Shown piece after piece: positions 506 to 57,151 of a stretch of 64,000 bases of DNA; within the stretch, counting starts at the first letter, position 1; every line of letters starts with the position of its first letter. The stretch spans positions 1,632,001 through 1,696,000 of the forward strand of contig OZ245011.1 of the NCBI GenBank assembly GCA_965223665.1, given 5' to 3'. Made by a program: the position numbers and the translations under genes. The notes below the pieces were generated by a model. The model did not search any database. It worked only from the letters and a program-made list of their open reading frames with translations, and was not told where the DNA came from. The DNA comes from Nitrospinaceae bacterium (GTDB lineage Bacteria > Nitrospinota > Nitrospinia > Nitrospinales > Nitrospinaceae).

Positions 506-2257
506 TTATTTTGGAGGTTCTGGAACCAAACAGGTTACAGGATCGCTGGTATTACCCGATTGATCTACCGCAGTCACCACAGGGTCCCCATTCAAAATGA
601 TATGATGGTCCACATGGTTGGCGTTACCCTTGTTGCCACCAATATCTTTAATTTCAGGAGTGGCTTCCGCATCCTGGGTAAACTTAATGGTGGTTCCTAC
701 CGCGAACGGACCAAACACCACACCACTGACAGGATCAGTCACAAAAATTTGAAGAGGCGCACAATCCTGCGTGAGGTTGTCCGTGGCACTCAGAATATAG
801 AAACCATCTTCATTAATTTTGTTAGCTTTCGGTGTGTTGTTGCCGTTAGGGTTCTCGGTTTCGGTACAAGTTGCAACCGGCGCGATCGTATCCACCCAAT
901 GCTTGAGCAGGTCGACCGAATCTACCATACCACCGATAGTCGTACTTACCGTAATGGTATCCGTACCTAAGCTGTTACAACTTTTTGGTACCGTATAGTC
1001 AAAGGATACAGCGGCTCCGCCCGGTGTAGCCGTTTCGGAACCATTCGGACCGGCATTCTGCCCACTCACTGAAAAATTAATGAGTCGGTCCGGCCCGGTG
1101 CCTCCCAAAATTTGACCAAACACTGTATGCGAGTCGTCTTGACTGAGCTCGTTGGTGGCTGTTGGAGGAGACGCCGTCAATTGAAGCAGATGGATTTGAA
1201 TATCCGCGGTGACACTGTCGCTTCCATTCTCGTCTGAACCGTCGGCTCTTAAAGTTACATCGTAGTCACCCACACCCAGGTTTGGAGTGGTATCACAATC
1301 CGAAGTCACCGGTCCGTCTTGTGGAAGTGCCGGATTACAAGTGGTCGGTGCATCCGCCCCATTGATCTGATATTGGGCATTTTCCAAAGTGGTTGATAGC
1401 AAGTCCGGTAAACTTTCCGCTAGCAAAGAAGGATCAGGAACAGGAAAACATTTTCCACCGGTCGCATCGGCAATTTCATGTAGAGTTCCCACTGCACCGC
1501 TGACACAATCCACATTTGGGCCTACCGCAAACGTATCTACCTGAGCGCCGGTCGCAGCTAAATCCGCCAACTGTCCGGCGAAACCACCAGTTGCATCTTC
1601 TCGATTACCGAATCCATCTGAGAAAAAGAAGACACGGTTATTACCACTGGTGCTGGCTCCAAGAACGGAAATAATTCTCTCCATGGCTTGTGAGAAATCC
1701 GTCCAACTGGAACCAATGGAAATAGGAGTGAACTGGTTTACACCCGCCGGACCGCCGCCTGCATCGGAAAAAGCAGATTGAGCCACCGTGATCACGTTAT
1801 TCGGATCCGTAGTCAACAATCCGGGCATATCCGCAGCGGCACTTCCATCAGCAAATATGACGAGGCCCATTTCTTTTACAGAAGTTATATTGGGTTGACT
1901 TTGATAAGTTACAATCGCACTGACTTCACAATCCAGAATAGTACCTCCCAGGCAGGCATTCTGCACCGTACTGGCAGAGACATCCAGAACATAAATGAGT
2001 CCAATATCCGGAACGCCCTGACCCACACTGACTTCGCCATCGATAGGTACATCAATGGTACCTCCCGGACCAGACGCAGCGGGTACTTTAAACTCGGCTT
2101 CATCGGCCGGGTCTTGAATTTCTGAAGTAAGTTCTCCACCGTTGGGTAGAGTCGTGGAATTGGGGTTGACCGCAAGCGCCGCAACAGGCACGAGTCCCCA
2201 AAGCAAGATCGCCACAATCCCAACCACCATTTTTGAATACATATTCGATTTAAACAT
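506..2257 (-). CDS. Secreted von Willebrand factor A (MIDAS) domain protein with Ig-like C-terminal domains
   Basis: Signal peptide; MIDAS motif LDVSAS, then TDF and FFSDG; Thr/Gly/Asp-rich beta segments with paired cysteines. Confidence 0.8.
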   Translation of the reverse strand: MFKSNMYSKMVVGIVAILLWGLVPVAALAVNPNSTTLPNGGELTSEIQDPADEAEFKVPAASGPGGTIDVPIDGEVSVGQGVPDIGLIYVLDVSASTVQNACLGGTILDCEVSAIVTYQSQPNITSVKEMGLVIFADGSAAADMPGLLTTDPNNVITVAQSAFSDAGGGPAGVNQFTPISIGSSWTDFSQAMERIISVLGASTSGNNRVFFFSDGFGNREDATGGFAGQLADLAATGAQVDTFAVGPNVDCVSGAVGTLHEIADATGGKCFPVPDPSLLAESLPDLLSTTLENAQYQINGADAPTTCNPALPQDGPVTSDCDTTPNLGVGDYDVTLRADGSDENGSDSVTADIQIHLLQLTASPPTATNELSQDDSHTVFGQILGGTGPDRLINFSVSGQNAGPNGSETATPGGAAVSFDYTVPKSCNSLGTDTITVSTTIGGMVDSVDLLKHWVDTIAPVATCTETENPNGNNTPKANKINEDGFYILSATDNLTQDCAPLQIFVTDPVSGVVFGPFAVGTTIKFTQDAEATPEIKDIGGNKGNANHVDHHIILNGDPVVTAVDQSGNTSDPVTCLVPEPPK

Positions 2258-2408
2258 AAATTCCCCCGTTCATTTTAAATTAGACTTTAGTTTCGAGTTC
2301 AATTTTGATGCAGTGGGTTTACTTCACCGTTTGTGGGTTACTTCGGATCAACCTCCTTTCCTTTTTGTTCCGTTATTTCCCTTTTCATAAAACCTCTCCA
2401 TAGCAAAT

Positions 2409-4250
2409 TTATAATGCTGAATCCTTTTCAAGAGTTATCAATAAAGCCCCATGGGAAGTGGTCGGCATTTCTTCACGTCGAATCGAGCGATAGCCGGGAG
2501 CAGAAATCGAAAGAGTGTGACCTCCGGGCCCCAGTTCTGTAAAAAGAAAGTGGCCGTTCCCATTGGTAATGGTTTGACGTTGAGAATGACTGGTGATCCC
2601 CTGCATTTGACCAGACCAGAAAAGCTTGACCCTGGCATTCGATACAGGTTCCCCATCAAAACTTATGATGTTTCCCGCCAATTGGTCATTCCCCCAATCG
2701 ACAACCAGATCCGCATTTTTTATTTCTCCGGATTCCAGTTGAATTCCACTAAAACTGAACTTCGGGGAGCCTTTGCTGGAAAAATTGACCACCCCCGCGG
2801 GCACATCGTTTACCTGAAACCGACCACTCTTATCTCCGGTAACCGCAAGGTTTTTGCTGGCCCCTGCCCCTGTGTTCGACATCCATAGGGTGAATTGCGA
2901 AAGAGGTTTACCGCGGACGTTGAGCATGCGGCCTTGAATGCTGGTCCTGCCCATAGGTTCCAGAAAAATGGTCCGTTCGGGATTATTGGTCCTGACGGCT
3001 ACATGGTCTTCAAAATAATCTTTAAAATCCTCTTTGGGTCGAACCCAAAGCCGGTAATCGTCACCAATTTCCACATCATCTATTTCAAAGAAACCATCCG
3101 ATAAAGTCCTGGCGTTATAATTCCCCTGATGAATTTGGGAAAACAATCGAACTTTCGCTCCTCCGACAGGAATAGAGTTTTCATCCAGAACATAGCCGTA
3201 AACAGGAACCCCCTGGTTTAACTGTTTCAATTGAACATTGAGCTGAGTGGTTGGTGTCTCCCTTAATTGAGACTGGGGAATCCCACGAGTTTCGGTACGA
3301 TAACCTGACAAGGTGAAACGAACACTTTGATTGCGTTCTCGGTCATCCACATTAATTTGCAGGAGGTAAACTCCGTTGTTGTCTGTGGTCGTCGCATTTC
3401 TCTGACCAGAAGCAGCCACTCGAACATCGGCAAGAGGTTGACCCTCCCCATCCGTAACAACTCCGTTAATGGTTACCGGTGTTCGGGTATCATTTTTTAC
3501 TTGAAGAACCAGTGAAGTCACTCCGGCTCGAACTAGTTTGTTGATGCTTTCATAACTCCGAGTTTTCTCTGTTCGAAGCAGGTACTCGCCATCCGGTAAC
3601 TCTTCAAAATTAAATTGTCCCAAAGAATCCGATCGCGTCTCTTCCTTCACTCCGGAACTACTGCTAGCTCCATTGCCTTCTGCCAGACTTCGACTAGACA
3701 CCACAACTTTTAGATTTTTAACGGGTTCTGTGTTCTGATCGTATATCCAACCTGAAATCGGCTGAAGAGGAGGTTCGTTCTCTAATTCTTTTAGAGATGG
3801 AGTTTCAACCGCACCCTCTGAACTTTCCCTCGCAAAGGACTCGTCCATGGAAGCAGATGATTTTTTATTCTGGTCTGTTTTGCTTGAGAGATCTTTGAAC
3901 TGATCCTTGGCCGAATCTCCGAGAGAATCCTTTAAACCTTCATTTTCTGAAGTGTTACTATCGAGGTTTTTATTTTCAAAATCCTTTTGGCCTTTTCCCG
4001 GATCATCCAGGATGAAAAAAGATTTCTCTGTTGCAAATTCATTCGGCAAAGAATTGGTGCTGAAAAAATATGATTCAATATGGTTTACAATTGGCTCATA
4101 AAAACCATATATCCCCCATCCAACCAGCAAAACAAAGGCAAGAACAGCAATCCATTTTCCTCTCGAAGATTCCCTTCTAACCTTTTCAGCACCTGGTTTT
4201 GAAGTACCTAGTTTTTCTTTTGAACCAGCCGTCATTTTTGCCCCTCTCAA
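2409..4250 (-). CDS. Membrane-anchored protein with multiple carboxypeptidase-regulatory-like (Ig-like) domains
   Basis: One N-terminal TM, an acidic/Ser-rich linker, then about 5 repeats of the type IxGxVxDxxGxPxxxxxV...TDxxGxFxF...GxY. Confidence 0.8.
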   Translation of the reverse strand: MRGAKMTAGSKEKLGTSKPGAEKVRRESSRGKWIAVLAFVLLVGWGIYGFYEPIVNHIESYFFSTNSLPNEFATEKSFFILDDPGKGQKDFENKNLDSNTSENEGLKDSLGDSAKDQFKDLSSKTDQNKKSSASMDESFARESSEGAVETPSLKELENEPPLQPISGWIYDQNTEPVKNLKVVVSSRSLAEGNGASSSSGVKEETRSDSLGQFNFEELPDGEYLLRTEKTRSYESINKLVRAGVTSLVLQVKNDTRTPVTINGVVTDGEGQPLADVRVAASGQRNATTTDNNGVYLLQINVDDRERNQSVRFTLSGYRTETRGIPQSQLRETPTTQLNVQLKQLNQGVPVYGYVLDENSIPVGGAKVRLFSQIHQGNYNARTLSDGFFEIDDVEIGDDYRLWVRPKEDFKDYFEDHVAVRTNNPERTIFLEPMGRTSIQGRMLNVRGKPLSQFTLWMSNTGAGASKNLAVTGDKSGRFQVNDVPAGVVNFSSKGSPKFSFSGIQLESGEIKNADLVVDWGNDQLAGNIISFDGEPVSNARVKLFWSGQMQGITSHSQRQTITNGNGHFLFTELGPGGHTLSISAPGYRSIRREEMPTTSHGALLITLEKDSAL

Positions 4251-4623
4251 CGTTATAAAACAACAGCGTTTCTTTTATTGAGAATCCTTACGCAGATGAT
4301 TTTTGGATTAAGAATTTTTTAAACTGGATTCTCTAAAACCAGCTTAAATAAAAAACCTTTTCCTTTTTGCTGCTACACTATAAGAGAGAGCCTTTGAAGT
4401 AAATAGCCCAAATTAGTCATTTTTGAGTAAAAATTATTTTAATTTCGGATGGGATGTTTTGGGAATATGAGAATCAATATTGGAAGGACAAACCGGAAAT
4501 TGTCGAAACCCTTACATGAGCCTTGTCATATTTTTTATTACTTAAGTGTCATAAGCTGAAACGAATACCTTTATTAAGGTCAACCATTCACGTAGACGCA
4601 AGAAATTCTTAATAAATCAAACG

Positions 4624-5088
4624 ATGAAATTCCTTTTATCTTACAAATTTACTTACCTGGTTTTAATTATTGCGAATCTTTTAGTTTTGTTTTGCAAACA
4701 ATATTTCTTTAAAGGAAAGGATGAATATTTTTTTCAAAAAATTGTCTGGTGGAGTCCCTGGGTAATAATTAATTTGTTACTATTCATAAAAATGATCAAA
4801 AGAAAACTGACTTATAAATTTTTTGTCATGGAAGAATTTGTGACCTACTGTAGAATCGGAATGCTGTTTTATCTGACTCCATCCTTTGGTCTAATAATTT
4901 TTCTCAGCCCGATATTCGAAAGTTTCTGGCTTCCCCTTTGGGAACTTATTAATTTTTTTGATAAGCACTCAATTACAAAGGGGTCTTTATTTATTATATA
5001 TTTCACACTGCTGATTCTTTTTTTAATCCTCGAAATTCGTTATCTAAAACTCTTAAGAAAAAACTCAAACCTCTTAGCCGCAAAATAA
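4624..5088 (+). CDS. AT-rich multi-pass membrane protein, hypothetical
   Basis: 154-aa ORF with an ATG start and 4 hydrophobic segments. Confidence 0.6.
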   Translation: MKFLLSYKFTYLVLIIANLLVLFCKQYFFKGKDEYFFQKIVWWSPWVIINLLLFIKMIKRKLTYKFFVMEEFVTYCRIGMLFYLTPSFGLIIFLSPIFESFWLPLWELINFFDKHSITKGSLFIIYFTLLILFLILEIRYLKLLRKNSNLLAAK

Positions 5089-5133
5089 AACCTCCGAAAA
5101 TCACCTTCATTCCAAAACTTGCTTTTCATAAGG

Positions 5134-5177
5134 AAAACCCCCTACCTCCCGCCGCCTCACCGCGGGAAATAGGGGGC
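5134..5177 (-). terminator. Probable terminator after the tyrosinase gene
   Basis: Minus-strand stem CCCCTATTTCCCGC...GCGGGAGGTAGGGG followed by GTTTT, just after the stop at 5192. Confidence 0.6.
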
Positions 5178-5191
5178 TCCATCACCTAGGG

Positions 5192-8100
5192 TCAGTTCAT
5201 CGCTTTCTTCACGGCGGGGAAGTTGGCTTTGAGATAATCCAGCACCTCGCTGTAAGGCTCGCGGATAATGGCACGAGTTGGCTTTTGTTGCTTGACAATG
5301 GTTTCAACCATCCTGGCAAACCGAACCTGATCGCTTTCCGATACTTTCTTATAGTTCATTCGGCCCACCATCGCTTTGATCACCGCCCGGCGAAACTTAT
5401 CCGTTTCCTGACTGTTGCCGAGGATCTTCATCGCAATCCGCGGAAACCCAGAATCATTTTTAGCCATGGGCACCAACGCCGCTTCTCTCACTTCAAACGG
5501 AATTTGCGGACTCATGAGAATTTCCATGATCTTGCCCCGGCTTTGCCGGTCTTCGGAAAGTCCTTCCACCGCGGCAGCTCTCACCTTCACATCCGCATGA
5601 TCCACAAACGGACGGAACGCTTTCAAATGCCGAGATGAGCCGTACAAATTCAACAACTGCAGCGCATCCGCCAAAGGCACTGCCGGTTTTCCTCGGCCTA
5701 TCAGGGAATCCGCCAATTGCTTGGCCGCTTCTTTATCCCCGGAAGAAACCAGCAACTGAAATGAAGTCAACCGCAGTTTGTCCATATGCGTGGTCAAATT
5801 CTTTCGCGCCCAGGTGATGACTTGTTGCTTCGCGGTTTCATTTTTTTCAACCGTCGCTCGGCGAGCCATCTCCGTAAGCAGTTTCACTTTAAAATTTACC
5901 GTGCCACCGCGCGGGTTATTTAGAATCTGATCACTGGTATCCAGCAACTTTTTATCCAACGGAACCTGCCGTGTGGCTTCCAGACGCACATCTTCATCCT
6001 CTTGCGCATTCTGGATCAAAGGAAAAATCTTTCCGCGGACTTGCTGCTTTTCACCTATGGTAGATTTCAAAGCTTTCAAACGCATTTCCTTCGGTTGATT
6101 CCGATCCGTAAACACTTTGGACAAATCACTATTAACAACAATGAACTTATTCACCATCTCAATAATATCCGGATGCACCAGGATCAGTTTGCGAAATCCA
6201 TAGGGAACATCGTCATAACTGAAACCCAACCCAAGTTTCGGATCAAATTTACCCAGGTAATCGATCATATCACGTGGTCTTGCCACCGAAGGGGTTGCCG
6301 GCCACAAGTTGCCGATGGTAGAAGCCGGGAACGGCTTTTGTGGAACAATCGGCCGACTGCGCGGAACATTAAAGTTACTGTTCATGTCCGCAACGCTGGC
6401 CTGGTTCGGCGGGCGATCGTCACGACTTCCCGGACCCTGTGGTCCGGAGAGACTATCCCACGGCCACATACCATCCTCTAAATAAGCGCCACTGAACCAG
6501 GCGTTATTTCCTGGATCGCTCCAGTTGCCGTTGTTGTCATAATGTTGCGGCGCAGGAAACGTCTGCGCTCCTCCGGAAATTCCGAAGCGTCGCTTTTTCC
6601 ATTGCCAATACGCCCACTGCCGGTCCACCTGTGTATGCAGTAAATAAAACAGCGGATCCGTTGCCGAACGTTGCGGCGAAAGAATGTGACCGCTGCCGCA
6701 GGTCCAGCCATGGGAATAATTATGAGAGTATCTTTCCATAATATTACTGAAAGAAGTTGAACTGCTGCGCGGTCCAAAGTTGTCGTATACCATCAGATTG
6801 GGACGACTTAACAGAGCGCCCTCGCCGGCAGCATTGAATTCATTTTGCATATCCGTATTAGGTTCGTCTACAAACCGAAAGTTTGGCCAATCCGGAAAGA
6901 CGGTATGATCACTGCCATTTCGGCGAACCACACCAAACGACAAAGAACCGTTGGTCCCTAAGTCTGTATCCCATCCATTTAATGGATTGGTCCAGTGAAA
7001 ATTAACTGCCGGTGGAAACGACCCCGTTCCCGGAGCACCCATGAAACCACTGACAAACACATTGGGCGATTGCCGATCCCAATTCCAATAGGGCAACGCC
7101 ACGCTGGGATCAATCTTTTGCAGTTCACGTTCCAGGTGCAACAATAAGGCACGATGCCATGGCAAAAACGCCGGCTGGCTATGACCCAAATCCCCCGGGC
7201 CGCTTCCTACGGTGGATCCCAAACGGTGCAACTCCTGAAACATCAGATACCCTTTAGAGTTTCCGTCGGCATCCAGCCCGGTGTCTGACTGATTGCGCAG
7301 TTCACGCATAGCGTTTAAAAATCGGTCTCGCTCTCCGGTGGTCAACTTATTTGCATCCTTACGAATTCGCACCATGAGTTTGTGTTTACCGATCAGTTTT
7401 CCTTTTGCTTTTCCTTTGTGAACTTCAATAACGGCATCCTTGTCTTTAATGCTGGGACGGCCGAATTTACCTGCTATCACAAAGTTCACCCATTTCCCGT
7501 TACGCGGCAAATCCAGAGTCAGCGTTTTACGAGTGGCTGTAGTGTTGATGGGCCAGGGTTTTTTGTATTTCGCGAACAACACATCCCCGCCAGCACGTAA
7601 TTTATCATTAGTCAAAACTACTTTAACGGGTTGCGGGTTTAAACTGGCGCGACCTTTGTAGCGAGCCCTGGCAAACGTGGGTGCCCAGGTGACGTAATCA
7701 TCCTTTCCTGTTTTTGTCTGATTAACCTGAATTTCCACTTCGAGGCCTGGAGGAAATTTCGGTTTTTTACAATCGATGCTGGGAATTGTCATTCCACCAC
7801 CGCGTCCAAATCCGGTACAACGTTCACATATGGAACCCGGCCCGGTTCCACCAAATCCGCCCAGTTGCCATTCACCTATGGTATTGCCGCGACTCATGGA
7901 GGAAATCATTTCCTCCTGCATGCGGCCCATCTCCGGGTTCCTTTCAAACAACTCAGTCGCGCGGAAATTATCTGCGGGACATAAAATCTGCGTACAAATA
8001 CGCTCGGTCAGATCCGGCCGAAACCGTTCGCGGAACCGGTTTACCGCACACAAGGTATCGTAAGTATTGGCGAACCTTCCGACATTCTGCGAGCGGAAGG

Positions 8101-51328: not shown

Positions 51329-53338
51329 TCAAAGGTCCAAAAGATTGTCGGTGCTTTTTTCGTGGCTGAGAACGTATTGATGAGAATCGTACAACTTTTT
51401 ATAAATGGTGGAGAAAGGAGGGTATTTGTTTATCTCTTCAAGAAATTCTTTCCAGAGTTTTAGTTTATCTAAAAATTTGGTTAGAGATACATGTCTATCG
51501 TAGATCTCTTTATTTCCAAATTCAGGAATGAGAGAAATAAATTCTTTGGAAATTTCAGGATTATTTTTAAAGTCATATTTTTCGTAAGCAACGAATATTG
51601 CTAATCCCATGATTCGACTATGCTGGTCAAAATAATGAAACATCCCCCAATTTTTTTTAGCCGGTCCGACACTCATACTACCAAATCTAACATTTTGATC
51701 TTCCCCAGATAAATATAGAGTATGCCCAGAAGGAAGCTTCTCTAAGAAAAAGGATTTAGTAATTTTTTTATTGAGCAGGCTTTTGGTGACCTTATCTACG
51801 TTTAAAAATTTTTTCAGTGACGGCACTTCCAGAAACTTTTTGAATCGGTAAGGATCCACCTCTTCCAGAAACTTCAGCGTTTGCAACCAGCGGCCAAACA
51901 GTTTCTCGTTGTTTTCGATCTGTTCATAAAATTTTTCCGACGTGCTTTCCGGCACTTCGCTGATAAATTTTGCCGAATGATATTCCTGAATGCTTTTATG
52001 AATAAAGTTAATTTCGTTTCCTTCCTGCACCAGCAAACAGGTTATGGAAACCAGGTCCTCCAAGTAGTCTTCGGCAGGCGTTTCCTTTAAGTGGCACGCA
52101 TCCAGAGATTTGCTCACAATTTTTAAACAGTCGACTTCGTTGAATCGGGTCAGGTTTTCCTTTTGAGTGGTAAAACAAAAATTCCGAAATACCGTTTCGA
52201 ATTCCAGATCACCCAGTTCACTTTTCCTTTCGCGGACGTAACCGGGCTTCGTCTGGTCATGCCGTTTGAGCAACACCCAGAACAGATCGCGATACCAGTC
52301 CGACAACTGATCAGGAATTTCGTTGCCTCCCTTATAGACAATGATTAGCAGAGTTACCAACAACGGCGTGGTCAACACGTTTTGAATGTTTTTGTTGACA
52401 TCGATCGCCTTTAAAAACATTGCCGCCTTTTCCGGGTCCGGCACTAACTTTTTAATGAGGTTTTTGTTGTCGTCCGGAGTGAGTTTTACCAGCGGGAAAA
52501 TGGCAAAGTGAGGAGACTTTTGTATTTCCCCATTGGGTCGACTGGAAATAACGGTGCGAATGTTTTTATACTTTTGCGCAATTTTTTCCAGGTAACGAAT
52601 CGTTTGCATGATGTATTTGGAATTCAATTCATCGAACCCGTCGAGGATCAAAGCGATTCGACCCGCGCTGGCAAATGCGTCGAACAACTCACTGTCGAAC
52701 TTCAATCCCAGGATGGAAAGCGAGGAGAAAATCAAATCCTGCAATGAAGTTTTGTTATCGATTTGCCGCAGTTCGACAAAAATCGGAATGTATTCGCCGC
52801 GTCTCAATTCCTGAATACATAAATATTTTAAAAGAATCGATTTTCCCTGTCCGGCGGTTCCCTGAATAATAATATTCCGCAATGATTGAAAATCATCAAT
52901 GGAATTGACTTCCATTTCCAAACCGCTTTCACTTTTTCTAATCAACAAATCCTTTTCTTCATCCTGGTTCGCAAATATATCATACGCGGAGGTTTCTACA
53001 CGAGTGGGATAGTAGAAGTCGGACACTTTCACTTCTTTGTCCGTCTGCCAAATAGTTTTTACTTTTTCGACGTTGGCAATTTGCTCGACCAGGTTGGGGA
53101 TTTTCAGTTTGCTTTTGCTGAATTTGTATTTCTTTTTTTCAACAGAGGTGAGCCGTTCCAGAACCTCTTCAACTAAATCCCGGATTCCCTGCTCCAACTC
53201 AGGTTTTTGTTTGGTCAGGGAGATATTGTAGTTTTTAACAATCTTGTCGCGGCCAACTTTATCCCCGCCAACTTTATCCCCTTTGACGCTATCTCCCTCA
53301 AGTGAAGTCATTTTTTTCTTTTGTTTTTCGTTGTTCAT
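51329..53338 (-). CDS. NACHT-domain STAND NTPase (bacterial NLR-related) with an N-terminal GDKVG-repeat motif
   Basis: Walker A GTAGQGKS, Walker B LILDGFDE, ISSRP, TPLL, FIHKSIQEY; short non-repeat C-terminal domain. Confidence 0.92.
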   Translation of the reverse strand: MNNEKQKKKMTSLEGDSVKGDKVGGDKVGRDKIVKNYNISLTKQKPELEQGIRDLVEEVLERLTSVEKKKYKFSKSKLKIPNLVEQIANVEKVKTIWQTDKEVKVSDFYYPTRVETSAYDIFANQDEEKDLLIRKSESGLEMEVNSIDDFQSLRNIIIQGTAGQGKSILLKYLCIQELRRGEYIPIFVELRQIDNKTSLQDLIFSSLSILGLKFDSELFDAFASAGRIALILDGFDELNSKYIMQTIRYLEKIAQKYKNIRTVISSRPNGEIQKSPHFAIFPLVKLTPDDNKNLIKKLVPDPEKAAMFLKAIDVNKNIQNVLTTPLLVTLLIIVYKGGNEIPDQLSDWYRDLFWVLLKRHDQTKPGYVRERKSELGDLEFETVFRNFCFTTQKENLTRFNEVDCLKIVSKSLDACHLKETPAEDYLEDLVSITCLLVQEGNEINFIHKSIQEYHSAKFISEVPESTSEKFYEQIENNEKLFGRWLQTLKFLEEVDPYRFKKFLEVPSLKKFLNVDKVTKSLLNKKITKSFFLEKLPSGHTLYLSGEDQNVRFGSMSVGPAKKNWGMFHYFDQHSRIMGLAIFVAYEKYDFKNNPEISKEFISLIPEFGNKEIYDRHVSLTKFLDKLKLWKEFLEEINKYPPFSTIYKKLYDSHQYVLSHEKSTDNLLDL

Positions 53339-55063
53339 TTATTTAGATTCAGTATTGGGATCGTCTTTGAGTCGACGGGTGAAGGCAATGTTATTGAGAA
53401 CAACAGTCACGTTCGGGTGTGCTTTTCCTAAAGTCATTTGAAAAATAGGCAACGCTTTTGCAAAATAATCGATGGCTTTGTCGTAATCCCCTTTTTCTCT
53501 CCACGCGGCACCGAGGTTATTGTACCGGGTCCCCACATAATGATGATGCGGACCCCAGTTTTTGAGATCACTGGCCAGGGCCTTCTCAAAAAATTTAATC
53601 GCTTTGTCAAAATCTCCTTGCTCTTGCCAAGCGGATCCTACATTATTCCATCCGTTGGCAACATCGGGATGACCTTCTCCAAGCGTTAAAATATTTCTGG
53701 CAAGAGCTTTTTCAAAGTAGTGGATGGCTTTTTCGTTTTCACTTTTATTGTGCCAGGCCATTCCCAAACTGTTCCAATGATAGGCTAGATTCGGATGGTC
53801 TTCACCTAAAGTTTCGAGATCGCTGGCCAGGGCTTTTTCAAAATATTCGATGGCTTTATCGTACTCACCCATCGTATTCCACGCCAATCCCAGGTTGTTC
53901 CAATCTCGAGCGACACAAGGATGAACCTTTCCAAAAACTTTGAGATCACTCGCCAGTGCCTTTTCGAAATACTCAATGGCCTGGCCCGTCTCACCCAAAT
54001 TCTGCCAAGCCAATCCCAAATTATTCCACACAGTCGCAACACGGGGATGGTCTTTACCATACACCTCCTCATAAATGGGCAAACATTTTTTAAAATAGGC
54101 TATGGCTCTATCAAAATACCCTCTCGCCTTCCAAACCGTACCCACATTATGGCAACGGTGAGCCACATTCGGATGATTGGGGCCATAAGTTTTCAGGTCA
54201 CTTTGCAGAGCCTTTTCATAATATCCAATCGCTTTATCGAGTTCACCCTTATCCTGCCAAACATTTCCCAAATTACTCCATTGAATAGCCACCTCCGGAT
54301 GGTCCTGGTCATAATTTTTTAAATTAATGTCCAACGCTTTTTCTAAATACGCAAGTGCCTGATCGTATTCTCCCCTTTCTCTGCAAATCATTCCCAGATT
54401 ATTCAAATTGATAGCCACACTTGAATCTTCCTTCCCGTGATTTTGTATATTCGCATCCAATGCTTTTTCGTAGTACTCCATGGCCTTATCGTAGCGGCCA
54501 AGGGTTTTCAAAAGAATTCCAGTTTCGTTTAGATACAAACTATTTTCCGGAACCAGTTGCGTTGCACGTTCCATATATTCGAGAGCTTTGAGGTAATCGA
54601 TTTTATTTTCCGCTAGTTTTCCGAGTTGGTAGGCGGCTTCGGCGGCTTGTTCAATGGTATCTTTACTTTGATCTAAAGCTTTATGGAATAATTCTTCAGC
54701 TTTTTCAGTTTTTCCCTTTTTGAGCTGAGCTTCAGCTTCAGCTAACTGATCCTTAGTAATGGAAGGCTGGCGCTCTAAGGCTTCGGTGGCCTGGGCTAAA
54801 AGCTGTTGAGTGTTTTCTAAATCTTGTTGGACATTTTGTAGACGTGCTTCTGCATGATCCACTATTTTTTCTAAGAGAGCAATTTTTTCCTGATCCCGTT
54901 GCTGGCCTTTTTCATGCTCCCGTTTCAACTGCTCACGAACTTTGTGAACTTCCTTTTCCAATTCCGCCTTATGCCCGGCCAGCGGGATATTGTAATTATG
55001 GACGACTTTATCGCGTCCTACTTTATCGCCACCGACTTTGTCACCTTGAACATTATCGCCCAT
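53339..55063 (-). CDS. TPR protein (42-aa kinesin-light-chain-type repeats) with an N-terminal GDKVG-repeat motif and coiled coil
   Basis: About 9 repeats of HP.VA..WNNLG.AW...GEYDKAI.YFEKAL..DL; the stop codon abuts the NACHT ATG (TAAATG). Confidence 0.92.
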   Translation of the reverse strand: MGDNVQGDKVGGDKVGRDKVVHNYNIPLAGHKAELEKEVHKVREQLKREHEKGQQRDQEKIALLEKIVDHAEARLQNVQQDLENTQQLLAQATEALERQPSITKDQLAEAEAQLKKGKTEKAEELFHKALDQSKDTIEQAAEAAYQLGKLAENKIDYLKALEYMERATQLVPENSLYLNETGILLKTLGRYDKAMEYYEKALDANIQNHGKEDSSVAINLNNLGMICRERGEYDQALAYLEKALDINLKNYDQDHPEVAIQWSNLGNVWQDKGELDKAIGYYEKALQSDLKTYGPNHPNVAHRCHNVGTVWKARGYFDRAIAYFKKCLPIYEEVYGKDHPRVATVWNNLGLAWQNLGETGQAIEYFEKALASDLKVFGKVHPCVARDWNNLGLAWNTMGEYDKAIEYFEKALASDLETLGEDHPNLAYHWNSLGMAWHNKSENEKAIHYFEKALARNILTLGEGHPDVANGWNNVGSAWQEQGDFDKAIKFFEKALASDLKNWGPHHHYVGTRYNNLGAAWREKGDYDKAIDYFAKALPIFQMTLGKAHPNVTVVLNNIAFTRRLKDDPNTESK

Positions 55064-55353
55064 CTATCCAATTCCTGCTAAATTGAAAAATGGAAAAGTT
55101 CTTATGTATTCAAACCTACTCCTTCTGCCAAAACGAATCAAGGAAAATATTGGTGAGGGGAACGGAACCGGCCAGTCTAAAAATGGGAACTCGGTTTAAA
55201 CAGGGAGTCATAGGGATTTTCCCGGTTTGTCTGTGGAAAAAAATAACGAGTTGGTTCTATATATAGGGCGTTTTCGCGGAGATTTCTATTTTACAATTTC
55301 CCCTGAAATGGTTTATTTTGTCCCCAGGTTCAACATCTAATGAGGGGTCATTT

Positions 55354-55818
55354 ATGCAAACTATACTTCCGTTTTTAAAAATTTTTGTTGCACCATCCAT
55401 CATTTTAATCGGATTGTGTTTCACCATCCGCCATTTTAAATTTGTCCGCGCCATTTCTTATCTCGAACGATTGAACAGTACCGAGATGATGAAAGTTCGT
55501 GCAGAAGTCGACGGCTGGTTAAGTTCCAAAGCAAGTGACGAAGAAAAACTGAACGCGATATTTTCGAATCCCGCACTCCATTTGCATTTAATCCTGCTCA
55601 CCAACCTGTTCACAGAGTTGGGAATCGCTTATAAATTTGGAGTGATCAACAAAAAGCTGACGTTTGAAGCGTGGGACCCGGTCCTTCCCCGATACTGGAA
55701 CCAACTGCAATTTTATTTTCAGGACAGCCGCATCAAAGGAAAACTAGGAAAACATTTCGGAAACATGGCCAAAGACATGATGGAACAATCCGACCATCCG
55801 GAAGAAAGATATATTTAG
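55354..55818 (+). CDS. Hypothetical protein with an N-terminal TM (DUF4760-like)
   Basis: GAGGGG RBS before the ATG at 55354; N.FTELGIAYK.GVI.......W......YW pattern. Confidence 0.6.
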   Translation: MQTILPFLKIFVAPSIILIGLCFTIRHFKFVRAISYLERLNSTEMMKVRAEVDGWLSSKASDEEKLNAIFSNPALHLHLILLTNLFTELGIAYKFGVINKKLTFEAWDPVLPRYWNQLQFYFQDSRIKGKLGKHFGNMAKDMMEQSDHPEERYI

Positions 55819-55931
55819 AAACGTGCAATAGTAAGTAATCCTGGTAACTAATGGTTACAAAATTTTTACCTACACCTTGATTTGTACGGAAATTTTCCGT
55901 ATAATATGGAAATTCATTAAAGGAACTGACT

Positions 55932-56225
55932 ATGAAACCGGAAAATCCATCCACCAAATCGGCCCGTTTTGAAGCAAGAATCACGGAAGAACAAAAGGCC
56001 ATTTTCCAAAGGGCCGCGGCATTGGGGGGCCACCGGTCTCTCACGGAATTTGTCATTGAAAGCGCTCAGGAAAAAGCCAATGCCCTGATACAAGAGCATG
56101 ATATCCTTCGTTTATCGGCGAAAGACAAAAAATTGTTCGTCGAAGCACTTTTAAATCCTCCGGCCCCCAATGCCAGGTTGAAGCAAGCCGCAAAACGCTA
56201 TAAAAAACTGGCGCCGCGTGGGTGA
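55932..56225 (+). CDS. Type II TA antitoxin, DUF1778 (TacA/AtaR-like RHH)
   Basis: KSARFEARIT.EQKA...RAA..G.RSLTEFV...A...F.EALLNPPAPNARL. Confidence 0.92.
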   Translation: MKPENPSTKSARFEARITEEQKAIFQRAAALGGHRSLTEFVIESAQEKANALIQEHDILRLSAKDKKLFVEALLNPPAPNARLKQAAKRYKKLAPRG

Positions 56226-56721
56226 GTTCCTTCCTCTAACCGAAGCATTACGCGCCAAACATAAACGGGGACACTTTACCTGCGGCGAACCTGCGCTGGA
56301 TATCTATCTAAAACAATTCGCCAGGCAGGATCAAAAAAGACGTGTCGCTGCGGTGTTTGTGTTGGCCGATGCAGCGAATCGTATTCAGGGTTATTACACA
56401 CTTTCCGCAGCCCATATATCTTCCGAGATTTTGCCGGAATCTCTATCTAAAAAACTTCCGAAACATTCATTTCAACCGGCCACGTTGTTGGGTCGACTGG
56501 CGGTGGATCAAGCTTTTCAAAACCAGGGGATGGGTGAAACGTTACTCATGGATGCCTTGCATAGAAGTTTTTTACTTTCGGACCAAATCGGTTCTATCGC
56601 GGTGATTGTAGATGCTTTGAATAAAAAAGCGGCTAAATTCTATACTCCATACGGGTTCATTCCCCTGACCGGCAGCAAACGATTGTTCCTTCCCATACAA
56701 ACTATCGCTAAACTATTTTAA
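56218..56721 (+). CDS. Type II TA toxin, GNAT acetyltransferase (TacT/AtaT-like)
   Basis: H.R..F.CG...LD.YL...A, GYYTL, PA.LLGRLAVD...Q.QG.G..LL.DA, VDA....A..FY..YGF. Confidence 0.93.
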   Translation: MGEFLPLTEALRAKHKRGHFTCGEPALDIYLKQFARQDQKRRVAAVFVLADAANRIQGYYTLSAAHISSEILPESLSKKLPKHSFQPATLLGRLAVDQAFQNQGMGETLLMDALHRSFLLSDQIGSIAVIVDALNKKAAKFYTPYGFIPLTGSKRLFLPIQTIAKLF

Positions 56722-56752
56722 ATTGTAATGACTATAGTTTATGGATTGCAAA

Positions 56753-57151
56753 CTAAAGACAAAATATTAAATGGAAGGGAACATTCTCTTTTCGCCATTC
56801 ATCTGAGGCAAAAAGCCAGGATGAAATAAGTTTGCCTGCGGTAAGCGTTGCATTTTTCCAAAGTACTCCGGAATTTGATAAAAGCAACACATAGCCTTTG
56901 GCAGGCCACCACTCCAAATCCCCCAAACATTCATCCAAAGCATCCCAATTGTTTCCAAAGTAATCCGGAAATTTTAAGGCTTGAGCTAAAACAGCAAATA
57001 GATCGGAGTCATTCGAAATAGAAGCGGCATTAGCTTCGATTAAAGTGAGAGAAGAGTTTTGAACTTTCTCTCGCAAAGCGTTCCATTCGTCTTGAGAAAT
57101 AAAATGAACACACTCGGCGGATGGGTTTTCGAGAATTTTGAAATGAATCAT
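56753..57151 (-). CDS. Barstar-family RNase inhibitor (orphan immunity protein)
   Basis: LKFPDYFGNNWDALDECLGDL barstar signature. Confidence 0.9.
   Translation of the reverse strand: MIHFKILENPSAECVHFISQDEWNALREKVQNSSLTLIEANAASISNDSDLFAVLAQALKFPDYFGNNWDALDECLGDLEWWPAKGYVLLLSNSGVLWKNATLTAGKLISSWLFASDEWRKENVPFHLIFCL

Follow-up and report, generated by a model that had tools for sequence, protein, structure and literature searches.

Two abutting genes of a Nitrospinaceae bacterium raise the question of why a TPR protein and a NACHT NTPase begin with the same short repetitive peptide. The genes lie in a stretch of 64,000 nucleotides (assembly GCA_965223665.1, contig OZ245011.1, positions 1,632,001 to 1,696,000), which is hereafter called the window and to whose first letter the coordinates refer. 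Both are on the minus strand. In the list of open reading frames (ORFs), the TPR gene (53339..55063) encodes a product of 574 amino acids (aa), and the NACHT gene (51329..53338) a product of 669 aa. The junction reads AAA TAA ATG, so that the ATG of the NACHT gene directly follows the TAA of the TPR gene. This stop-start abutment suggests coupled expression, and the pair is probably a co-translated two-gene module. The explanation that we consider best, giving it a little better than an even chance, is that the shared peptide is a tag of the BASS11 type, a published amyloid signalling motif (Ibarlosa et al., 10.1101/2024.11.07.622273), and couples the NACHT protein to its TPR/coiled-coil partner via tag-to-tag association.

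The tag occupies aa 2-21 of the TPR protein (55001..55060, minus strand), where it reads GDNVQ, GDKVG, GDKVG, RDKVV and is followed by HNYNIPL; the M-GDNVQ start is kept in an orthologue from the same genus. In the NACHT protein it lies at aa 15-34 (53237..53296, minus strand), with the pentads GDSVK, GDKVG, GDKVG, RDKIV and then KNYNISL. Both copies consist of four G-D-x-[VI]-x pentads, which form a 20-residue core, and the likeness runs past the repeats into NYNI-x-L...K-x-ELE, which is common to both proteins. When the two modules were aligned, 26 of 40 residues were identical, and 16 of these 26 were differently encoded. In the identical 13-mer the codons are different at 9 of 13 positions; the nucleotide identity over the 40 codons is 80/120. 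The method of Nei and Gojobori gave a dN of 0.07 for the 20-residue core and of 0.21 for the 40 codons, whereas dS was saturated and returned as undefined. Since the residues are kept while the synonymous sites are saturated, the tag has been conserved at the protein level and is no recent DNA copy. Both copies are under purifying selection.

A search of the whole genome with the NACHT protein found the N-terminus of the TPR protein (60% identity over aa 14-62, per-genome E value 8.2e-11), and a back-translated two-pentad DNA pattern gave 14 matches in the genome, as compared to 0 when the pattern was reversed as a control. No Pfam family covers either tag and none is common to the two proteins. 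The initial annotation of this DNA had described a shared N-terminal GDKV repeat on abutting genes whose products are otherwise unrelated, and both statements are borne out. NCBIfam and PADLOC gave nothing on the tag. A word-index search with NACHT residues 1-60 returned the query alone among 21 candidates, the tag being too short for such a search; a full-text literature search for the tag strings gave no match, and one for HetE-N gave nothing relevant. Three known repeat types were rejected: the canonical pentapeptide repeat (A(D/N)LXX), which has no Pfam match in the window proteins or in three small tagged proteins of the genome and whose register would put K inward; the RTX nonapeptides, which have the wrong period; and the curli repeats, for which there is no Pfam match.

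The genome (4.35 Mb, GC 38%, 98.6% complete) was scanned in six frames for further copies, and 16 ORFs were found to carry pentads. By Pfam, the tagged ORFs comprise the window NACHT protein, nine TPR_12/TPR_10 proteins besides the window TPR protein, an iSTAND protein, a Peptidase_C14 caspase, a DUF900 hydrolase, whose pentads are degenerate, and three small proteins without a Pfam family. The initial annotation had proposed such a proteome search and predicted effector-type proteins bearing the motif; the domains attached to the tag are indeed varied, and the caspase and the hydrolase answer to the prediction. The tags of the genome fall into variants. Among 20 tag regions compared, those of the window were reciprocal best matches, with a score of 131 as against at most 91 for any other. 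The RDK[VI]V-x-NYNI-x-L extension is private to them, and its RDK[VI]V-x-NYN segment is absent from the TPR paralogues.

Other tagged genes of this genome also stand side by side. At G000:C1:1727436-1733799 an iSTAND gene with an N-terminal tag is followed by a gene for a MoxR-like AAA ATPase (351 aa) and then by one for a 1381-aa protein with C-terminal TPRs, a layout reminiscent of the iSTAND ternary systems described by Kaur et al. 2020 (PMC7159879), the tag taking the place of an EAD. At G000:C1:2057052-2060854 the tagged caspase gene (564 aa) begins inside a tagged TPR gene (703 aa) directly upstream; the two products carry one and the same tag variant, GNQ-x-GDI..N.G....GD...GDKV, behind a hydrophobic N-terminus that resembles a signal peptide. 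Three consecutive genes at G000:C1:2119281-2123172 encode a small protein of 195 aa, a TPR protein of 525 aa and a TPR protein of 574 aa, all with N-termini that, judged by eye, are signal-peptide-like. The 195-aa protein carries two sub-motifs, each matching one of the two downstream TPR genes: one shares 16 of 19 residues with the N-terminus of the 525-aa protein, and the other aligns to that of the 574-aa protein with a score of 98. In an AlphaFold2 (AF2) fold of the small protein (mean pLDDT 51.6) the tag is a low-confidence coil. This locus suggests that partners are sorted by a code of tags, possibly outside the cytoplasm. At three loci of the genome besides that of the window pair a TPR/coiled-coil protein is paired with a small membrane-type protein.

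The distribution of the tag in other bacteria was examined with a three-pentad DNA pattern, taking one genome per species. At least 114 stretches matched. Chloroflexota and Cyanobacteria account for most of the 80 loci fetched, and Acidobacteriota, Planctomycetota, cable bacteria and Vibrionaceae are represented as well. The strict motif was present in 71 ORFs of these loci; 3 were left out for having fewer than 60 aa or containing X, and a few of the 68 scanned are plain repeat arrays. Their Pfam matches were AAA_16 (16), NACHT (10), NB-ARC (7), nSTAND1 (4), Peptidase_C14 (7), CHAT (4), TPR_12 (7), DUF4926 (6) and COR-B (3). Among 53 aligned copies the conservation of the first pentad (G-D-x-[VI]-x) is 90% or more, although the search pattern did not require it. 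A profile built from this 53-copy alignment matched 462 cluster representatives at E<=0.001 among 1.84 billion, 7 of them at E<=1e-10, and the window NACHT protein scored E 7e-7. The 95 best profile matches of at least 150 aa gave AAA_16 (13), EAD7 (11), NB-ARC (9), TPR_12 (9), NACHT (8), CHAT (6), nSTAND1 (5), TCAD2 (5), caspase (4) and TIR_2 (4), so that tag and EAD7 occur in one chain in 11 of the 95. The tag is widespread on such proteins (STAND NTPases, caspase/CHAT, TIR, EAD7) in filamentous or colonial bacteria. A single tag holds from one to more than 10 pentads; it is frequently found where a membrane or signal segment joins the globular part, or in the stretch separating two domains. 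At least two tagged ORFs are present in 17 of the 80 loci. The adjacent tagged pairs include a caspase with an EAD7 protein, a DUF4062 protein with a STAND-WD40 protein, a HetE-N protein followed by a large protein, and an LRR-Roc-COR protein that ends in the tag, followed by a small protein that starts with it. These data support the claim of the initial annotation that the shared peptide is a real, selected signalling-type tag associated with NOD-like receptors (NLRs).

Some of these loci deserve description. In filamentous cyanobacteria (locus L070, positions 2670-5937; also L063, L067, L056, L032, L098 and L084) a large protein has the tag at its end, and the product of the following gene, of 150-230 aa, has it at its start. 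The large protein of L070 is LRR-Roc-COR by Pfam, and P-loop motifs are present in three large proteins of the sibling loci; the start of the cyanobacterial tag, H-Q-[HY]-G-x-G-D-N-[FV], is closely like the enterobacterial Bab-type motif described below. Four Cyanobium-type loci (L094, positions 1069-5923; L049, L087 and L104) hold an ORF of about 400-550 aa with a mid-chain tag beside a large ORF with N-terminal pentads, the two genes overlapping in L094, L049 and L104 and being merely adjacent in L087. In L094 Pfam gives a DUF4062 protein and a WD40-repeat protein, and a STAND NTPase between the tag and the WD40 array was read by eye. In a metagenome-assembled genome of Chloroflexota (L054, positions 5222-7499) a caspase and the adjacent EAD7 protein share both the pentads and the extension GDKI-x-VG-x-I-x-G-x-x-GIAIGR. 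About a dozen of the fetched loci have this longer extension, so the pentads can form one portion of a bigger module.

Bab and Agp are an antiphage abortive-infection pair of E. coli. According to the report on it (10.1101/2024.11.07.622273), Bab (109 aa) bears BASS11 at its C-terminus and Agp at its N-terminus; the peptides assemble into fibrils, and beta-breaker mutations abolish both the foci and the antiphage activity. The same text describes Q92, D99 and N100 as key residues of Bab, four glycines as breaking the strands, and Agp, the sensor, as a TPR protein that has BASS11 at its N-terminus and lacks an NTPase. BASS11 is there said to accompany NACHT, NB-ARC, TIR, CHAT and EAD7, and the domain company of the tag (68 ORFs, 95 profile matches) is the set so listed.

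One small protein of Photobacterium, found by the pentad pattern, is homologous to Bab: it matches PDB 9h9v 'Babybass' with E 2.6e-4, and also Pfam HetE-N. It scores 53.6 bits against NCBIfam GapS6a, below the cut-off, and has D2, G11, Y14 and D15, the N-terminal positions mutated in Bab. Its C-terminus carries pentads, and its neighbour (GapS6b, 181.6 bits, below the cut-off) starts with a matching tag; a tblastn search of phage records with this protein gave only noise at E>=5. A homologue on a Buttiauxella plasmid (9h9v, E 1.6e-18) ends Q-N-H-S-G-T-G-D-N-V-G-G-N-K-I-T-G, where the spacing of 7 from Q to D-N equals that from Q92 to D99/N100 in Bab. An E. coli copy 89% identical to the Buttiauxella homologue is annotated gapS6a and lies between ogr and gpD of a P2-like prophage (L144, positions 3001-6119). 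It has 106 aa, ending QNHSGTGDNIGGNKITR, and is followed by a 930-aa gene whose product starts QNHTGTGHNVAGN; the two genes are a Bab/Agp-type pair in a prophage hotspot, full length in 7 E. coli genomes. Nine aligned Bab-like proteins have one to four G-D/N-K-[IV]-x pentads in their C-termini. When the tag profile was compared with the Bab-like family by hhalign, the match reached 96.5% probability with E 9e-10, although low-complexity repeats inflate such scores. Because the relatives of Bab bear the same pentads at the BASS11 site and the profiles match, we read the tag as most likely a pentad-expanded relative of BASS11. The initial annotation had asked whether the motif is a catalogued BASS class: it is probably related to BASS11, on the strength of the Bab relatives and the profile comparison, but the key positions of Bab are not all kept.

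What, then, are the two proteins that the tag would join? The NACHT NTPase domain covers aa 155-298 (52445..52876, minus strand; Pfam E 1.8e-11), and both Walker A (GTAGQGKS, aa 160-167, 52838-52861) and Walker B (LILDGFDE, aa 230-237, 52628-52651) are intact; D-G-F-D-E fits the D[GAS]hDE NACHT signature as given in 10.1101/2022.07.19.500537. The AF2 model (mean pLDDT 83.9) is confident from residue 41, residues 1-38 being below 50, and its nearest structures by Foldseek are NLRC4, NOD2 and NLRP3, with E values down to 2.2e-12. By Walker motifs, signature and fold the protein is therefore of the NACHT/STAND type. Between tag and NTPase lies a helical region conserved in the family (aa 41-130, 52949..53218, minus strand; model helices 41-61, 65-70 and 80-90). 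The C-terminal part of about 370 residues (51332..52444, minus strand) comprises a helical/winged-helix STAND part and a non-repeat C-terminal domain, which the model shows confidently as mixed helices and strands, which is conserved across the family and which we presume to be the sensor. As the initial annotation had stated, the 669-aa protein lacks a repeat sensor: Pfam found no LRR, WD40 or TPR family in it or in its family.

A search with residues 100-669 gave 191 proteins at E<=1e-5. The best 120 of these are mostly of 570-620 aa (about 590 aa) and repeat-less. Pentads are present in the first 150 aa of the window protein and absent from those of the other 119. Walker A is at position 160 in the window protein as compared to a median of 99 in the family, and the homologues start at about its residue 50. 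For these reasons the tag is an add-on of about 60 residues to an autonomous repeat-less NACHT family, and a lineage-specific graft is the best reading.

The TPR protein has an N-terminal tag, a coiled-coil-like helical region and about nine 42-residue TPR_12/TPR_10 units (Pfam E 5e-85 for TPR_12 and 2e-70 for TPR_10), with no NTPase family by Pfam, again as first annotated. The helical region (aa 27-130, 54674..54985, minus strand) is common to six paralogues or orthologues, with a mean column identity of 62%; the label 'coiled coil' was given by eye from the heptad-like, charged sequence. The TPR array (aa 171-560, 53384..54553, minus strand) keeps a 42-aa register, and Tandem Repeats Finder detected no tandem homogenisation of it at the DNA level.

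Among 41 related genomes, this one included, the two-pentad DNA pattern occurs here and in one genome of the same genus (G001). The latter has a TPR orthologue with a near-identical start (MGDNVQGDKIVGDKVGRDKIVHNYNIPL) and no adjoining NACHT gene. At the site of G001 syntenic to window positions 51329-55200 (L025, positions 1400-2520) the promoter region is kept, together with a start, MGDKVGGE, followed by a stop. An unrelated membrane-like ORF of 180 aa, a 96-aa fragment corresponding to NACHT aa 48-114 at 63%, and the C-terminal residues are also present. These remnants indicate that the genus once had the operon and that the sister species has since lost it through decay.

The initial annotation had put the pair forward as a candidate split NLR, with sensor and switch on separate chains, and the proposal appears weak. 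The NACHT family is repeat-less, and its members lack both tag and TPR partner (1 of the best 120 of 191 is tagged); the gene order, TPR and then NACHT, is the reverse of what fission of a NACHT-TPR gene would give. No homologous TPR/NACHT pair was found in the 40 relatives, the sister species having the TPR orthologue alone and the wreck of the operon. Fission of one NACHT-TPR gene was rejected on the same two grounds, the reversed order and the lack of repeats in the family. The features that had been called unusual have precedents, too: Agp likewise combines TPRs with a tag at the N-terminus and lacks an NTPase, and repeat-less bacterial NACHT proteins are a class described in 10.1101/2022.07.19.500537.

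With Bab/Agp the pair shares a short tag rich in G, D, N and V on adjacent gene products and a TPR protein, on the sensor side in Agp, with no NTPase and an N-terminal tag, and Bab homologues have G-D-x-[VF]-x-G-D/N-K-[IV] pentads, as in the window tag, at the BASS11 position. Unlike Bab/Agp, the second tagged protein of the window is a NACHT NTPase and both tags are N-terminal; no Bab/Bell (HetE-N) effector is present in window or genome, the window TPR protein lacks the GreA/B-C and PIN domains, and the tag of the pair has three to four pentads instead of about two and lacks the Q-x-H-x-G half. GAPS6, which protects E. coli against phages (Mahata et al., 10.1101/2023.03.28.534373), is a two-gene Vibrio system made of the small, Bab-like GapS6a and a TPR-containing partner, and its Photobacterium relative has the tag at the facing ends of the two proteins; in the window a NACHT protein stands in place of the small membrane-type protein, and neither window protein matches NCBIfam GapS6a or GapS6b at E<=0.1.

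As in BASS and FASS systems, a short motif stands on the products of abutting genes, and copies on the receptor side are at the N-terminus of an NLR-type or sensor protein (NACHT aa 15-34, TPR aa 2-21), but the pair has no C-terminal effector-side copy on a Bell/HeLo-type (HetE-N) or other executioner. The Bell/NLR pairs with BASS1-10 and the fungal HET-S/NWD2 system, as described in 10.1101/2020.01.06.895854, resemble the window pair in their adjacent, collinear and tightly spaced genes, in an NLR-type NTPase with an N-terminal motif and in their occurrence in filamentous or colonial bacteria; their partner is a membrane-targeting effector with a C-terminal motif, whereas that of the window is a TPR/coiled-coil protein with an N-terminal one. 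This comparison with BASS1-10 is by description. EAD1-11 (PMC7159879) have copies on core components and on effectors, as found here for the tag (on iSTAND and NACHT proteins, and on the caspase and the DUF900 protein), and many paralogues per genome, adjacent copies being most alike, as are the reciprocal best tags of the window. However, EADs are folded domains, whereas the window tag is a 20-residue repeat found alongside EAD7 and not replacing it, and neither window protein has a Pfam EAD match at E<=0.1. Finally, proteins of the bNACHT01 type (Kibby et al., 10.1101/2022.07.19.500537) are similar by architecture, with a NACHT domain, D-G-F-D-E and a short non-repeat C-terminal region, but the window protein carries the N-terminal add-on of about 60 residues.

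On the favoured explanation, self-association of the tags, templated and amyloid-like by analogy with these systems, would link the TPR and NACHT proteins physically. Oligomerisation of one partner, whether of the TPR protein, by way of its coiled coil together with a ligand, or of the NACHT protein, in an assembly driven by nucleoside triphosphate, would cluster its tags, and the clustered tags could nucleate the tag of the other, which would be recruited or activated. The grafted tag would plug an otherwise autonomous NACHT protein into the set of 16 tagged proteins. The effector gene precedes that of the receptor in canonical pairs, an order that would put the TPR protein in the effector slot; from Bab/Agp and the three other loci of this genome with a small membrane-type partner, the TPR/coiled-coil protein looks like a sensor. 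The data establish the tag itself, the selection on it, its graft onto the NACHT protein, its spread and domain company, the frequent adjacency of its carriers and its relation to the motif of the Bab relatives; binding, the amyloid fold, the direction of signalling and a defence role of the pair are inferred. We consider it doubtful that an NLR is here assembled in trans, or placed downstream of another sensor, in an N-to-N manner, with a second, extracytoplasmic tag circuit of caspase, TPR and small proteins that obeys a partner-sorting code; such a circuit would amount to signalling of the amyloid type beyond the cytoplasm. A complex prediction for TPR residues 1-110 and NACHT residues 1-140, run without controls, scored 0.00 and has no bearing either way.

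Several observations weigh against a BASS11-type coupling of the two proteins. The inflation of profile scores by low-complexity repeats has been mentioned, and the BASS11 identity rests on homologues and not on the BASS11 logo or on an alignment. The window tags are without the Q-x-H-x-G half of the Bab-type motif. As to equivalents of Q92, D99 and N100, the TPR tag keeps G-D-N in its M-G-D-N start and has no Q upstream, and the NACHT tag has G-D-S for the D-N of Bab and no Q or H upstream. About 40% of the tag residues are charged, which is unusual for amyloid motifs, and the monomer model leaves the NACHT tag unstructured (pLDDT <50). Neither window protein has a recognised toxic or executioner domain, no HetE-N (Bell) domain was found in the genome, and PADLOC has no relevant defence model for the pair. 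The lack of a homologous pair in the 40 relatives points the same way, as does the finding that the partner is the top tag match in 4 of 35 ORFs of other genomes, a crude measure confounded by orthologous loci and by pentad number.

That the tag is a plain homotypic adaptor of the EAD type, a stoichiometric beta-strand or oligomerisation element with no amyloid templating or prion-like spread, seems to us rather unlikely. Its presence on a core component (the iSTAND protein, encoded ahead of an AAA ATPase and a large TPR protein) and on effectors (caspase and hydrolase) agrees with the definition of EADs in PMC7159879, as do the many paralogues per genome and the likeness of adjacent copies; the charge content and the range from one to more than 10 pentads would suit a modular zipper better than a fixed amyloid core. 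However, EADs are in the same text small folded domains, mostly helical, and Pfam has no EAD match to the tag. The co-occurrence with EAD7 in one chain (11/95) makes the tag something additional, and the relatives of Bab bear it at the site of an experimentally shown amyloid motif. It is unlikely, too, that the window proteins do not interact at all, the NACHT gene having gained a 5' module of the TPR family by recombination, with tags that serve other partners or self-clustering and an adjacency that is merely historical. Such a history would account for a NACHT family otherwise without tag or TPR partner (1/120, best 120 of 191), for a sister species with a near-identical tagged TPR orthologue and no adjoining NACHT gene, and for a partner-specific similarity that is not general elsewhere (4/35), and the 16 tagged ORFs offer many possible partners. 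It is harder to reconcile with two tags that are reciprocal best matches and share the private RDK[VI]V-x-NYNI-x-L extension, and with a peptide kept despite saturated synonymous sites, which means that the same constraint has long acted on both copies. The stop-start abutment, which suggests coupled expression, and the adjacency of tagged genes in 17 of 80 loci elsewhere also argue against it.

Bacterial caspase homologues cleave after basic residues, and the pentads place a K or R every five residues. They might hence be a protease-sensitive linker or recognition site, for instance for K/R-specific caspase-like peptidases, and the co-occurrence of caspase and CHAT domains with the tag would fit this, together with its frequent position as a link from a membrane or signal segment to the globular part, or from one domain to the next. 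We hold this to be very improbable: cleavage at the extreme N-terminus (M-GDNV...) would free few residues only, and neither the matched variants on adjacent genes nor the tag at the site of a fibril-forming motif in the relatives of Bab would be explained. The tag is repetitive and made of four residue types, which might let two low-complexity stretches resemble each other by chance. The probability of this is practically negligible, considering the per-genome E value of 8.2e-11, the 14 matches against 0 in the reversed control, the conservation of the first pentad (at least 90% in 53 copies) and the likeness that extends past the repeats.

The pair lies in an accessory patch beside a phosphate transporter gene. 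The adjoining part of the patch, window positions 55318-57151, is accessory or defence-island-like and holds genes for a DUF4760 protein, a TacA/GNAT pair (a TacA-like antitoxin and a GNAT toxin-like acetyltransferase, 55932-56721) and a barstar-family protein (56753-57151). A promoter and terminator scan of the stretch gave sites no more numerous than in shuffled sequences.

The kind of system is already known, as a BASS-type tag on adjacent immune-type genes, and a TPR sensor without an NTPase is the design of Agp. What differs here is the N-to-N arrangement with a NACHT protein, the recent graft onto an otherwise untagged family, the pentad-rich form of the motif without Q and H, and the expansion to 16 members, some of which have N-termini that resemble signal peptides. 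BASS11-type tags would be extended to a Nitrospinaceae lineage, and the network of 16 tagged members in one genome may serve as a testbed for how small tag differences determine partner specificity. If the tag is a generic adaptor only, the pair would belong to the usual range of conflict systems in colonial bacteria. If, as we favour, the tags couple the two proteins, the locus would be a natural graft of a known amyloid-type tag onto an autonomous NLR-like ATPase and would show that immune modules can be rewired through the transfer of a 20-residue peptide.

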